Assembly: GCA_902499925.1 (NCBI GenBank)
Contig: GCA_902499925.1_4130.1
Origin: Escherichia coli
Lineage (GTDB): Bacteria > Pseudomonadota > Gammaproteobacteria > Enterobacterales > Enterobacteriaceae
Reading direction: 5' to 3' (one strand)
Length of the DNA: 64,000 bases
Made by a program: the position numbers and the translations under genes. Of this stretch, positions 1-64,000 are shown one piece after another (position 1 is the first letter of the stretch; each line of letters starts with the position of its first letter). The notes below the pieces were generated by a model. It saw nothing but the letters and a program-made list of their open reading frames with translations. It was not told the origin of the DNA and did not search any database.

Positions 1-389
1 GTTATAACACTACTACATGAACTTAATGTATTGTTTTGGAATTCATTTTCTTCAATGTTATCAGTACTGGTATTGATGAATTGGATAGTATCTTGTTTCT
101 GATTAGACATTGAAACTAAAGTACAATCAGTATAAGGAGTGTACAAAAACGTCTCATTACTAATTGAACTATCATTAGTATATGATGGTTTGGTAATATA
201 AATCAAACGCATGATATCACGCTCAATACCCGATTTACGACTTTCCACTAAAGAAATCATATCTATATTTTTCATATGATCAACATTGACATGGAACTTT
301 TTGTTGAGAATTACATCTTTTGGAGAATTTTTATATGAAGATAAGATCTCATACATCTCAACTAATTCTCGTGCATTTAATAAACTCAT
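1..389 (-). CDS. Hypothetical protein, 3' end truncated by window edge (family A-like)
   Basis: ATG at ~387-389 overlaps stop of next gene (ATGA); open to window start; contains 'ENEFQNNTL'. Confidence 0.45.
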   Translation of the reverse strand, partial: MSLLNARELVEMYEILSSYKNSPKDVILNKKFHVNVDHMKNIDMISLVESRKSGIERDIMRLIYITKPSYTNDSSISNETFLYTPYTDCTLVSMSNQKQDTIQFINTSTDNIEENEFQNNTLSSCSSVI

Positions 390-814
390 GTTTTGTCTCT
401 TAATGAAAGAATATCCTTAGTATAAACTGAAACTGAAATATGATTATATTTCATCATTAATTTATACACATAAGAAGCTAGTACTAAATCGTAAATTAAT
501 TTAGTATCATACAGTACTCCGTATTGTAAAGCAAGTGAATCAATATCATCTTTACTTTCAATATCCAGAAATGTGCCGAAATATGTAGTACCGTAGAGAT
601 GAAAAGTGGAATTAATGCAATCAATGCATTCATTGTCCAATAGAGTAGATGCTGATGCCCTCGGTGAATCCCAAATAGTCACTGCGTGTATGCCCTCAAC
701 GAACAAATCTATCCATATTTTGTGTCGTTGTCTTTTTTGTTTTTTATATTTTTCTGGATTTGAAAGTGTAGTGTCAATTATATCCCATATGTATAAGCAT
801 TCATCTCTTGTCAT
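386..814 (-). CDS. Hypothetical protein (possible divergent family A member)
   Basis: Complete 142-aa ORF abutting neighbours on minus strand. Confidence 0.6.
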   Translation of the reverse strand: MTRDECLYIWDIIDTTLSNPEKYKKQKRQRHKIWIDLFVEGIHAVTIWDSPRASASTLLDNECIDCINSTFHLYGTTYFGTFLDIESKDDIDSLALQYGVLYDTKLIYDLVLASYVYKLMMKYNHISVSVYTKDILSLRDKT

Positions 815-1392
815 TATAGCACCTTATCCATTGCTGCATTTAATGCTTTTAAACGATCAACATTCAAAGTATTGAAGATGTACGTTCCTAAAATGTGGAA
901 ATCGAACTGGTTCTTTTTGTATGTGTGATAAATTAAACTACAAAAAACAACAGTACTAAGAACCTCTTCCGGTATAACGGTGCTCATCTGAAACAGTTCT
1001 TCATCAACTGTACTTGATTCTGGATTGATAGCTTTTAACTTATACTCTTCATCACCGAATAGTACTTTAATATTATATAAAACACCAACAGTACTAATAT
1101 GAAATGGATGGTGTGAAAAACTTCCATCATCATTAATTTGGATATCGGATCTAATCTCGCACTCTTCATTACTTTTACTATTATTTTTTACAATACAAAT
1201 ATTCCTGGCACCAGAAATAGTAAGAATACCGTGATCGTAATATTCTTTGGACATACATTTAGATGAAAATGACACATCACGGATGAGGTAATGTTTGTTA
1301 ATTTCTTTGGTACTACCAACAATGGATAACATTTTTGTACTGATATCATATAGCTGTTGGTGTCGGGCTGTCATATAACTATAAGCGTTCAT
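814..1392 (-). CDS. Family A paralog (EExxFQxS-motif protein), function unknown
   Basis: Motif 'DEELFQMSTV'; complete ORF overlapping neighbours. Confidence 0.75.
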   Translation of the reverse strand: MNAYSYMTARHQQLYDISTKMLSIVGSTKEINKHYLIRDVSFSSKCMSKEYYDHGILTISGARNICIVKNNSKSNEECEIRSDIQINDDGSFSHHPFHISTVGVLYNIKVLFGDEEYKLKAINPESSTVDEELFQMSTVIPEEVLSTVVFCSLIYHTYKKNQFDFHILGTYIFNTLNVDRLKALNAAMDKVL

Positions 1393-1963
1393 ATGTATCC
1401 TTGATGTTTTTGATTGCCGTGTGTAGCTCTTTTAATGTATCGGATTCACAGTTAATGAACTTACTATACATTACCAATTCACCAGTGTCAATAGCTTTTG
1501 CAGTTTCATAGCAAAGCATCATGTACTCAAACTCCTTGAAGTTGTCAAGTACTGATCTCTGGAAAATGTATGCTTCACGAATGTCTTCACTTTGATCTAG
1601 TTCTGGTGGAATTTCCAAATATGTATCATTCTCTACGTCATCAAAATTGGATTCGACAATTCGATTAATATCTTCGTGTAAAGCATTGACAAATATCATG
1701 TTTGGAGTAATGGAACCGATTTGCTCACTATGCCTTGATGTGCGGATATACATTGCCATAGTATCCCATGAACCTTTTTTCGTCGTTCCATAATCGTAAA
1801 CTTTATAAGACTCCAGTACTACTGAACCAAAACGATATGGTGATTTGCATTCAACTTTAAGACGATAATTTCCAATAGGCTCATGTTCAGTAATGTTGTG
1901 CTTTTCAGATAGTTCTGCAATGTCATGCATCAATTTCATAATTTGAATGTGTTCAGCTTGCAT
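1379..1963 (-). CDS. Family A paralog, function unknown
   Basis: Motif 'EAYIFQRSVLD'; complete ORF. Confidence 0.75.
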   Translation of the reverse strand: MQAEHIQIMKLMHDIAELSEKHNITEHEPIGNYRLKVECKSPYRFGSVVLESYKVYDYGTTKKGSWDTMAMYIRTSRHSEQIGSITPNMIFVNALHEDINRIVESNFDDVENDTYLEIPPELDQSEDIREAYIFQRSVLDNFKEFEYMMLCYETAKAIDTGELVMYSKFINCESDTLKELHTAIKNIKDTYERL

Positions 1964-2526
1964 TATAAGTCCTCTAATTTAACAGGTACATGTTCATTGA
2001 TGAACGTCTTAAGAGCCAGTACTAGATCTTCTAATTCTTCTGTACTGAATTTTAATATAGTTTTAAAGATTATCAATTCATTTCTTTCTATAATCTTTGG
2101 AATTTCATATGCTAACATAAGATTGCGAACAGTACCAGCGTTGTGTATGAGGTTCGCATTGAATAAAAGTACATCGTACTCGTCTTTTTTAATTTTATAA
2201 TTGTACTCTTCAATTACTTCATGTGTGTATGTATTCTTATAAGCAATTTTATTTTTATGAAATTTATAACCAACAGTAACACTATCATCATAAAATGTAG
2301 AACGATAATCTTGTTTTCTATCGCCGGACGAAATGATGTGTAATGCTGTGTATTTGTCCTCAACATCTAACTCAATGTTTGCATAACTGTTAACAGTTTC
2401 ATTCTTTAGGACGTTAATGTTATATTTCTCATTAACTTTAATGTACTGGCGTGAACCATTATCATCAATGAACTTAAAACAATGCTTTACCAACAATGTG
2501 ATTTCTTTAATTAATTCAGTACTCAT
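1963..2526 (-). CDS. Family A-like paralog (degenerate motif)
   Basis: Complete ORF in array; weak motif 'EYDVLLFNANLIHN'. Confidence 0.65.
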   Translation of the reverse strand: MSTELIKEITLLVKHCFKFIDDNGSRQYIKVNEKYNINVLKNETVNSYANIELDVEDKYTALHIISSGDRKQDYRSTFYDDSVTVGYKFHKNKIAYKNTYTHEVIEEYNYKIKKDEYDVLLFNANLIHNAGTVRNLMLAYEIPKIIERNELIIFKTILKFSTEELEDLVLALKTFINEHVPVKLEDL

Positions 2527-2613
2527 ATCTTCTCCTGTACTCTGTTAAAAGCGATTATAACACACCTGAATGCTCATGTAAAGCACTAAACACAAAAAGA
2601 CCCATAAGGGTCT

Positions 2614-62645: not shown

Positions 62646-62715
62646 ACACAATGCCAGTACTCAAGTACTGGCATTCTTTTTGATTAAATATAGTATAATG
62701 AATAAAGGAGGAAAT

Positions 62716-63870
62716 ATGTTACCTTTTGTTAGAATGTTTGATTATGGGAATGAAGCACCTGTACCAGTTGGTATAAAGATGGTAAAAGTTTTACAGAATA
62801 ATGTGTTTATTTTATTAGAAGACGGAAGGTTATATGGCAGAGGGCATAATTTTTACTATCAATTAGGTACTGGTAGTAGTTCTCCTACTATAGTTGAAGA
62901 GTGGGTTTTATGTTTAACTGATGTAAAGGAATTTTGGACTACTGGTGATACACAAGGAATATTAGTACGTAAAAATGATGGCACATGGTGGAGTACTGGT
63001 ACTCAAATCTATCGTGGTGTTAATACTACTTATCGTGTATGGACAGAAATACTTGGTATTTTTAATAATGTGAATGACACATATAGTAAAATAGTTATAG
63101 GAAACGGCGTTACATTATTATTAACAATAGATAATAAATTATATAAGATGGGTGACAATAACAACGGTGAAGTTTTTACTGGGGCTGTTGGACAAAGAGT
63201 ATCAGTACTGACATTGACCCCAGAAGTTGATGTTAAAGATATTGGTGTAACCGCGAATAATGCTTCATTTGTATTATACAATGATGGAACATTAAAGTAC
63301 AGTGGGAATAAATCTAGTATTGGTTCGACTGGTACAACTACCACAACTACCACATTGACTACTGTTACTACTGGAGTATTACAGATAAATTCGGAAAATG
63401 CATATAGTGCTAATTACGTATTAAAGAGTGATGGGCTATATGTATTCGGTTCACAAATAGATGGACAGTTGGGTGATGGCACTGATGGCACTATTAACAG
63501 TCTTAGAACAATCACAAAGATACCAGCTTCTAGTATTCCTAGTACTGCGATTGATTACATAGGTGGTTCTAATTATGAAGCACACGTTAGAGCAGGTGGT
63601 ATATGGTATTTCGCTGGGCGTGGAAACGCTTCTGGAGATGGAATAACGAACTCTAATGTTATTAAAACATGGCGTGCATGTACTAATATAACTGAACCAG
63701 TTCCATATGATAAAATGACACATGGTTATATGATAACATTCATGTTAAAAAACGGTGAATTATATGGTTCAGGGAATGGTAGTAGAACTGCTGGTATGGG
63801 TACAATTCCGTATGAAGAAGAAAATGCCGGAAATACAGGATTATTTAAAAAAATAGTTACACCGAGTTAA
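62716..63870 (+). CDS. RCC1-like repeat protein, cassette 7
   Basis: Start at MLPFVRMFDYGN; 'FYYQLGTGSS', 'IDGQLGDG'; contains TTTTTTTLTTVTT tract. Confidence 0.85.
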   Translation: MLPFVRMFDYGNEAPVPVGIKMVKVLQNNVFILLEDGRLYGRGHNFYYQLGTGSSSPTIVEEWVLCLTDVKEFWTTGDTQGILVRKNDGTWWSTGTQIYRGVNTTYRVWTEILGIFNNVNDTYSKIVIGNGVTLLLTIDNKLYKMGDNNNGEVFTGAVGQRVSVLTLTPEVDVKDIGVTANNASFVLYNDGTLKYSGNKSSIGSTGTTTTTTTLTTVTTGVLQINSENAYSANYVLKSDGLYVFGSQIDGQLGDGTDGTINSLRTITKIPASSIPSTAIDYIGGSNYEAHVRAGGIWYFAGRGNASGDGITNSNVIKTWRACTNITEPVPYDKMTHGYMITFMLKNGELYGSGNGSRTAGMGTIPYEEENAGNTGLFKKIVTPS

Positions 63871-63878
63871 AATTAAAA

Positions 63879-63910
63879 TGCCAGTACTTGAGTACTGGCA
63901 TTTCTTTTTT
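63879..63910 (+). terminator. Rho-independent terminator between RCC1 cassettes
   Basis: GCCAGTACTTGAGTACTGGC followed by ATTTCTTTTTTT. Confidence 0.7.
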
Positions 63911-63946
63911 TGATTAAATATAGTATAATGAATAAAGGAGGAAAAT

Positions 63947-64000
63947 ATGTTACCTTTTGTTAGATTGTTTGATTATGGGAATATCACACCTGAACCTCTT
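63947..64000 (+). CDS. RCC1-like repeat protein, cassette 8 (5' end only; continues past window)
   Basis: ATG after AAAGGAGG encoding MLPFVRLFDYGNITPEPL. Confidence 0.7.
   Translation, partial: MLPFVRLFDYGNITPEPL

Follow-up and report, generated by a model that had tools for sequence, protein, structure and literature searches.

AGTACT, a signature palindrome of Rak2-like jumbo phages of Enterobacterales, and its candidate roles

Phages and bacteria normally deplete the sites of the restriction systems that they encounter, yet a stretch of DNA of 64,000 nucleotides filed under Escherichia coli (assembly GCA_902499925.1, contig GCA_902499925.1_4130.1; hereafter 'the window') is crowded with the palindrome AGTACT, which is identical in sequence to a ScaI-type restriction site. 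Why should a virus accumulate such a word? A preliminary description, made from the letters only, had treated the sequence as that of a phage, and megablast bears this out: the window is from Asteriusvirus, the E. coli jumbo myophages of ~350–380 kb (PBECO4/121Q/fEgEco12 group), and is 96% identical to phage fEgEco12. Read in reverse, it leads from the right end of the fEgEco12 unique region, across one copy of the terminal repeat, to the initial 30 kb of the unique region on the left, and the whole ~21-kb direct terminal repeat (20,993 bp in fEgEco12) lies inside it, at 29689–50381. These limits were mapped from fEgEco12 coordinates 20993 and 353741, following the described termini of that genome (PMC13070987). 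The analysis presented here establishes AGTACT as a signature word of Rak2-like jumbo phages of Enterobacterales and considers what may read it.

Abundance, conservation and distribution of AGTACT

The window contains 284 copies of AGTACT, against 20.39 ± 4.62 (maximum 35) in 100 dinucleotide-preserving shuffles. It is the top-ranked hexamer, and its ratio of observed to expected counts (O/E) is far above 1. The excess of roughly an order of magnitude first judged by eye amounts to 14-fold here and to 8.8-fold in the complete genome of TH47 (352,450 bp), where 917 copies stand against ~104 expected. In the window, CAGTACTG occurs 65 times for 0.96 ± 1.0 expected, TCAGTACTGA is present in 21 copies, and the GTAC core is itself enriched 3.2-fold (700 against 221 expected). 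The flanks of AGTACT are symmetric: position −1 favours C and disfavours G, position +1 favours G, and T and A are preferred at −3 and +3, respectively. In TH47 the density is ~2/kb in every 5-kb bin and in every gene class, late structural genes included, and rises to 6–8/kb in the terminal repeat; in the window the repeat holds 137 copies, or 6.6/kb overall and 10.8/kb in its noncoding DNA, and accounts for most of the region rich in the word. The word had been called pervasive over positions 1–64000, which is correct as to enrichment and rank but not as to extent: it is wholly absent from 14721–22477 and 24526–29819, two islands that are described below.

By our own gene calls, based on open reading frames (ORFs), the density in the window is 3.4/kb in coding and 8.6/kb in noncoding DNA, and the coding copies are distributed over the three frames as 73/43/64. 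Codon usage does not account for them: 180 coding copies are observed, against 55 ± 6 after within-gene shuffling of synonymous codons, and the corresponding figures for TH47 are 796 and 220 ± 13 (frames 382/155/259), so that a 3.3–3.6-fold excess is left across the two. The preliminary description had noted that coding copies coincide with Ser-Thr, Val-Leu and Gln-Tyr codon pairs. The link is real (51% of the Ser-Thr dipeptides of TH47 are encoded as AGTACT) but its direction is the reverse of an explanation by conserved residues. The dipeptides ST, VL and QY are over-represented 1.3–1.8-fold (1.3–1.5-fold in TH47) and the reversed TS, LV and YQ are not; because of this, and because the excess survives synonymous shuffling, it is the word that shapes protein sequence and codon and dipeptide usage, and not vice versa. 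As to the codons themselves, AGT, ACT, GTA and TAC are favoured in the genes of the window, and 36% of the Ser codons there are AGT. TH47 encodes, at 160–165 kb, tRNA-Ser(GCU), tRNA-Thr(UGU), tRNA-Asn(GUU) and tRNA-Arg(UCU), the first of which decodes AGT, the Ser codon raised by AGTACT.

Enrichment is mainly a property of the complete palindrome. In TH47 the half-words AGTAC/GTACT are only 1.8–2-fold enriched, against 8.8-fold for the full word, and since the halves reach ~2-fold where the palindrome reaches ~9-fold, selection acts on the palindrome and not on a five-base word. The half-words are also devoid of cumulative orientation skew across the 352 kb of TH47, one island excepted. One-base deviants occur mostly at the outer positions (O/E 1.5–2.4, against ~1.1–1.7 at inner ones). 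A drive by very-short-patch-type repair was considered and rejected, as none of the 18 one-base neighbours that it would consume is depleted; the sole low one-base neighbours are AGGACT/AGTCCT, with an O/E of ~0.5.

The sites are also unusually stable. AGTACT is intact at 88.8% of the sites aligned with TH47, against 71.4% for all hexamer positions, and at 83.5% of those aligned with EC22.5-2 (87% identical to the window over the aligned part), against 65.2% for hexamers within 40 bp of the same sites. In small samples restricted to ACT codons with unchanged flanking codon positions, the third base is conserved at 98% inside the word and 90% outside it in the comparison with TH47, and at 93% and 87% in that with EC22.5-2. 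Because the sites are better conserved than local controls and background hexamers, purifying selection at the DNA level maintains AGTACT. The tail sheath gene offers a view of this process over longer distances, with seven copies in TH47, six in Klebsiella phage RaK2 and nine in Pectobacterium phage CBB. Two of them are common to the three phages, at conserved Ser-Thr positions, and several lineage-specific copies coincide with amino acid changes from SV, QT or DT to ST, a pattern that points to selection on site density, with turnover of individual sites.

Beyond Asteriusvirus, the enrichment is 12–21-fold in the sampled regions of RaK2 (83 copies against 6.9 expected in 30 kb), Cronobacter phage GAP32 (181 against 8.7) and CBB (266 against 15 in its first 50 kb, 1–50k), and a late region of CBB (100–120k) has 48 copies against 5.5 (8.7-fold). 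AGTACT heads the hexamer statistics in all of these regions. The GTAC core is 2.1–3.3-fold enriched in all AGTACT-rich phages, against 0.75-fold in the Pseudomonas relative PA5oct, where a 20-kb sample (100001–120000) has no AGTACT for 6.1 expected; this deficit may be ordinary restriction-site avoidance. Viral contigs were further scanned for a shared promoter 14-mer, and 120 contig stretches were compared. Densities of 4–8 AGTACT/kb were found only in stretches of jumbo contigs of 348–378 kb, namely 121Q, GAP32, CBB, a 357,154-bp contig and a 371,104-bp metagenome contig, whereas ~100 unrelated viral contigs have a median of 0.46/kb, the ascertaining site included. AGTACT is accordingly a signature word of the Rak2-like jumbo phages of Enterobacterales. 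E. coli K-12 has three copies in one 50-kb sample (0.06/kb), and because the 2.6–6.6 copies/kb of the phage exceed this host sample ~40-fold or more, AGTACT is a potential discriminator between phage and host DNA.

Promoter positions and AGTACT-free islands

The terminal repeat carries sigma-70-type early promoters crowded on its − strand; 13 sites match the sigma-70 consensus perfectly (12/12), 12 of them on the − strand, and many others are near-perfect. AGTACT takes two positions relative to them. In the first, word and −35 hexamer share one T, the last base of the former and the first of the latter (AGTAC-TTGCAA); in the second, the word lies 1–2 bases upstream of the −10 hexamer (AGTACT-g-TATAAT). 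Some early promoters carry both copies, 20–21 bp apart, as does the one at 45310–45349 (−), which reads AGTAC-TTGCAA, spacer, AGTACT-g-TATAAT, with centres 20 bp apart. Counted at −27 to −30 or at −7/−8 from the −10 hexamer, AGTACT accompanies 24 of 38 promoter-like sites in the window, 18 of 45 in GAP32 and 20 of 40 in CBB, for an expectation of ~0.04 per promoter from density alone. Both positions thus recur in three genera, although the cassettes differ in detail. Fixed positions abutting the core hexamers are those expected of an operator of sigma-70 promoters, and the sequences suggest that AGTACT is placed as one.

The individual arrangements pointed out beforehand were all recovered. 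The −35 hexamer is bracketed by two copies of the word in AGTACTTGCATAGTACT, where a −35-like TTGCAT lies between them, at 32101–32117 and 30591–30607 (both −). A longer palindrome, AGTACTATC-N9-GATAGTACT, is present at 47910–47936, directly upstream of TATAAT. An ORF-free region at 49306–50683, which spans the predicted left terminus (~50381), is indeed rich in the word, with 14 copies, many as (A)TTCAGTACTGAA(T). Finally, the word builds terminator stems in the cassettes of RCC1-like genes: the terminator at 61400–61425 (+) has the stem GCCAGTACT-c-AGTACTGGC at 61402–61420, a similar one at 63878–63905 uses the same stem halves, GCCAGTACT...AGTACTGGC, at 63880–63899, and the remaining RCC1 cassettes have weaker versions.

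Known promoter-associated elements were compared with these arrangements and set aside. An extended −10 element does not fit: its TG is displaced by one base in the window, and the versions in GAP32 and CBB (AGTACTtTATAAT) lack it. TrpR-like GTACT-N8-AGTAC or LexA-like pairs require a 14-bp site spacing that is not enriched, and the right half of a LexA box is absent, on inspection, from the promoters. No association of AGTACT with late-like (TATAAATA) or middle-like (TGAAACG) promoter motifs was found.

The two AGTACT-free islands correspond in TH47 to gaps of 8.4 and 5.0 kb, in a genome with a mean of one site per 384 bp where the longest gap expected by chance is ~2.6 kb and no further gap of this kind exists. 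Island 1 (14721–22477, −) has neither AGTACT nor, on the + strand, a single AGTAC. Its GTAC density is nonetheless normal (10.4/kb), and its + strand has ~52 NGTACT, 47 of them TGTACT, that is AGTACA on the sense (−) strand; AGTACA is ~16-fold enriched in this single orientation and the reverse orientation is strictly absent. Under genome-wide proportions, 52 sites of one polarity have a probability of ~1e-29. All three frames contain such copies, and these show the customary preference for C at −1 and T at −3. This architecture is kept in TH47, in EC22.5-2 (~81% nucleotide identity) and in A4, in which one compared island-1 protein is just ~30% identical, and the TGTACT sites are conserved at 63%, against 47% for their surroundings (n = 35). 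The island genes are orphans confined to Asteriusvirus. Island 2 (24526–29688, −), which abuts the inner end of the terminal repeat, is GTAC-poor (2.6/kb), contains ~20 tandem small genes, and has few half-words, of polarity opposite to that of island 1 (nine AGTACA on the + strand). The tandem array of tiny genes itself spans 24114–28994 (−), with ~20 genes of 70–92 residues, and is AGTACT-free. Such islands are not a general neighbour of the terminal repeat, CBB having none.

Other features of the terminal repeat and its surroundings

Genes up to 55.3 kb are nearly all on the − strand, that is, transcribed inward from the left genome end. Outside the left terminus, a small-gene array (50382–55300, −) has the highest coding AGTACT density of the window (7.7/kb); it comprises a tandem array of ~18 tiny genes of 59–77 residues at 50684–55284 (−). 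Seven RCC1-like paralogues of 358–440 residues follow in tandem on the + strand (55391–63870), most with their own TATAAT-type promoter and terminator, and GAP32_001 is a homologue of these proteins. Within the repeat, an 84-residue protein (34634–34888, −) matches a ParE-like toxin domain (PF24732, E = 6e-11) and is conserved in CBB and GAP32. In megablast searches, the region of the terminal repeat and beyond (30000–64000) also matches Campylobacter, Phapecoctavirus, Justusliebigvirus, Klebsiella, Acinetobacter and other phage records at 80–90% identity. No known RNA family was matched in the window.

Several smaller elements were seen near the promoters and termini. An intergenic element occurs at 31135–31165, 33397–33427, 36666–36696 and 40681–40711, in which a promoter-like TTGACT...TATTAT has as its spacer a hairpin with a 12-bp stem (AAAGGGATTGACTCCGGTCAGTCCCTTT); a conserved AGCCCAYAGGGTGC box follows ~40 nucleotides after it, similar hairpin-spacer promoters exist in GAP32, and no Rfam family matches the element. 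Boxes of the sequence CCCAYAGGGTGC are found at 31104, 33361, 36635, 38970, 40645 and 47186. Most early promoters between 30 and 49 kb have, shortly past their predicted transcription starts, a conserved hairpin rich in G and C (GGGGAGAAatgaTTCTCCCC and variants), e.g. at 40064–40157 and 41332–41400, which would give early mRNAs 5′ stem-loops. The 8-bp unit TAGCCGTC is repeated in tandem, in twelve degenerate copies, at 49475–49573, ~0.8 kb inside the predicted left terminus, and ATGATTACAT repeats flank this terminus (~50381) on both sides, at 50294–50317 and 50523–50560; both kinds of repeats may be terminase or replication signals.

The E. coli Chi octamer is ~40-fold over-represented in the terminal repeat, where nine copies share an orientation that puts Chi on the − strand, for an expectation of 0.2. 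CCACCAGC occurs at 31050, 31273, 32852, 34259, 36608, 37856, 39317, 43309 and 49785, and GCTGGTGG at 43372, 49797 and 56824; two Chi/anti-Chi pairs form hairpin stems. By our reading of Chi polarity, the orientation in the repeat is the one that RecBCD would recognise on entry at the right genome end. Throughout TH47, 17 copies lie in one orientation and six in the other, against 1–2 expected.

What may read the word

That so strong an enrichment implies a function, as proposed in the preliminary description, is upheld by the conservation of the sites, by their occurrence in four sequenced phages of three other named genera, RaK2, GAP32 and CBB among them, and in further jumbo contigs, by the sheath sites arising through amino acid changes and by the fixed promoter positions. 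The reading tentatively favoured here, though with considerable doubt, is a phage-supplied reader of AGTACT with two roles, as early-promoter operator and as genome-wide identity mark. AGTACT would be recognised by a symmetric and sequence-specific factor, probably a homodimer, that binds or modifies double-stranded DNA and is supplied by the phage. Such a factor, conserved in the clade, is suggested because word and flanks are symmetric, the palindrome is enriched ~9-fold against ~2-fold for its halves, the sites are conserved and the promoter positions are fixed. It would occupy the phage genome, which is chemically unmodified, over its whole length but host DNA scarcely at all, and the result would be a sequence-encoded discrimination between the two; bound at early promoters within the terminal repeat, this factor would also gate transcription, most plausibly by shutting it off. 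We infer that a protein reads AGTACT, that the phage encodes it and that its binding has these effects. TF1 of SPO1, p6 of phi29 and the hydroxymethylcytosine of T4 follow the same proposed logic of self-DNA recognition, early-promoter repression and genome organisation. Their cues are hydroxymethyluracil for TF1, modified cytosine for T4 and the bendability of DNA for p6. With AGTACT, unlike these marks, an ordinary stretch of sequence would make the distinction, in DNA that is cut normally: ten restriction enzymes cut fEgEco12 DNA as predicted (PMC13070987), and for this reason that DNA is not globally hypermodified.

Several observations weigh against a phage-encoded dimeric reader. Island 1, with its AGTACA in a single orientation, does not fit a simple dimer-site model and is a feature that every model has to accommodate; a promoter regulator has no obvious need for ~800 sites in genes of all classes. 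No candidate for the reader emerged: among the terminal-repeat proteins, the nine that are conserved across genera have no match to a DNA-binding family, only the ParE-like domain and weak sub-threshold matches. A GTAC core nested within further bases recalls HIP1 with its methyltransferases. Common descent of duplicated promoter cassettes could in part underlie the fixed promoter positions.

The resemblance to HIP1 (GCGATCGC) of cyanobacteria, the closest known phenomenon, deserves the fullest comparison. Like HIP1, AGTACT is a short palindrome in genome-wide excess of at least an order of magnitude, found between genes as well as in every reading frame within them; conservation of the two words exceeds background, and they are hence maintained by selection (PMC5861425, PMC4390886). 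AGTACT therefore shows three properties expected of a HIP-type word: order-of-magnitude excess, presence in all frames and in noncoding DNA, and conservation above background. Both words have a nested core (CGATCG in HIP1, GTAC here) and one-base deviants biased outward. It is possible, if unlikely, that AGTACT is likewise an epigenetic word, with an orphan phage methyltransferase acting on GTAC or AGTACT and with sites either made by methylation-dependent repair or selected as closely spaced palindromic methyl marks, for strand discrimination after replication or phage/host distinction. The enrichment of GTAC itself in the AGTACT-rich phages, the outer-position bias of the kind reported by Elhai for HIP1 (PMC4390886), the several methyltransferases encoded by these phages (PMC5259590, PMC11895373, PMC3622015) and an even density of ~1 site per 400 bp, suited to a strand-discrimination mark, speak for it. 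However, what has been inferred for RaK2 from unpublished digests is methylation of Dam, Dcm, CpG or EcoKI type, with CpG methylation detected by bisulfite, and AGTACT contains no site of these types (PMC3622015); AGTATT/AATACT, the neighbours that deamination would produce, show no depletion, the sites are conserved and not merely replenished, and the searched literature holds no methylome data for this clade. The Dam-family methyltransferase of the phage belongs to a family spread over many unrelated phages and is uninformative on specificity. AGTACT further differs from HIP1 in being AT-rich and six bases long, in occupying a virulent phage clade instead of cellular genomes and in its fixed promoter positions, no link to gene regulation having been found for HIP1. 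Its islands with an oriented one-base variant have no HIP1 counterpart, no cognate methyltransferase was recognised, and neither the promoter positions nor island 1 are explained by a methylation mark. Island 1 suggests a different reader, a machine that tracks along DNA (of the kind of a Chi-like nuclease regulator, a KOPS-like translocase guide or a primase) and recognises AGTAC/GTACT as an oriented word of five bases. The palindrome would then be a compact form that presents this word both ways, and island 1 a stretch in which just one orientation is tolerated: its ~52 consecutive sites are of one polarity with none of the other, the pattern is kept in TH47, EC22.5-2 and A4, and the polarity of island 2 is opposite. 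Primase sites of T4 and T7 follow a G-T-N pattern, which the GTA within AGTACT fits. Chi, KOPS and DNA uptake sequences are also dense, fairly even words, found in all genes as AGTACT is, that mark a genome's own DNA for a DNA-processing machine, and inverted pairs of uptake sequences form terminator stems as AGTACT does in the RCC1 cassettes. But those words are asymmetric and skewed genome-wide, whereas AGTACT is palindromic and without skew in 352 kb outside the islands, island 1 being the exception; so oriented a signal is not what was found. With half-words at ~2-fold against ~9-fold for the palindrome, no island beside the terminal repeat of CBB, and host Chi sites already present in the repeat, an oriented word is improbable.

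A host protein as reader is very doubtful. AGTACT would in that case recruit or titrate an Enterobacterales-specific protein, the leading candidate being the nucleoid-occlusion factor SlmA (site GTGAGTACTCAC), so that phage DNA would block cell division. AGTACT forms the identical core of the SlmA site (PMC3020112), which is read by a symmetric dimer and whose genome-scale distribution has meaning. Enrichment is seen only in Enterobacterales-infecting relatives and not in the Pseudomonas phage PA5oct, and infection by Asteriusvirus Sharanji, in whose genome no known division inhibitor was found, yields filamentous cells (PMC11895373). The flanks nevertheless disagree: the 12-bp SlmA site GTRAGYRCTYAC has strong preferences for G1, T2, A4 and G5 and accepts a purine at position 3 (PMC3020112), whereas the phage sites lack these flanks and partly avoid them, favouring C at position 3, where G is depleted (4–9%). 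None of the 284 window sites and none of the 917 TH47 sites is GTRAGTACTYAC, and GAGTACTC is present just three times in TH47. E. coli has ~50 SlmA-bound sites in ChIP-seq (PMC3020112), against ~900 AGTACT in the phage, and no SlmA homologue was found in the phage (best tblastn E-value 0.18). A functionless enrichment, as a by-product of codon or amino acid usage, amplification of paralogous cassettes or neutral mutational bias, is hardly credible. Repetition of the cassettes for promoters and terminators, of the RCC1 genes and of the arrays of small genes does inflate the noncoding counts, and AGT, ACT, GTA and TAC are favoured codons. These neutral readings are contradicted by the shuffling, conservation, clade and island tests: the excess left after synonymous shuffling is 3.3–3.6-fold, density is even over unique late genes, sites are conserved above local controls, the word is common to several genera and turns over via amino acid changes, and neutral bias cannot yield two zero-copy islands with gaps of 8.4 and 5.0 kb where ~2.6 kb is expected. 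Nor does AGTACT behave as an avoided restriction site, being 9–14-fold enriched where avoidance predicts depletion, which is seen just in PA5oct (0 against 6.1).

What distinguishes the present case is that a HIP-type word would here belong to a clade of virulent phages, with promoter positions and an oriented-variant island in addition. No report linking AGTACT enrichment to these phages was found in the literature searched, including the descriptions of RaK2, CBB, PA5oct, fEgEco12 and Sharanji and a comparative review of jumbo phages. A bolder version of the phage-supplied reader, which we regard as rather unlikely, is that AGTACT is a sequence-encoded identity mark which stands in for a phage nucleus or for modified bases: reading it, a factor of the phage would spare, organise or replicate phage DNA while the word-poor host DNA is attacked, and island 1, with its ~50 co-oriented AGTACA hemi-sites, would be a polar element for the same machinery.

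A clade comprising the largest enterobacterial phages is thus filled with ~900 copies of a palindrome that phages are expected to purge, strongly enough to bias their proteins. The density of AGTACT is a simple marker for such phages in metagenomes, digestion with ScaI or RsaI or methylome sequencing offers a quick experimental entry point, and these genomes are a small, tractable system for the old question of what HIP-type palindromes do. If a phage factor does read AGTACT, it would represent a new way of distinguishing self from host DNA for a virus with plain DNA and without a nucleus-like shell, and would give a handle on early-gene control in poorly understood phages that are therapeutic candidates.

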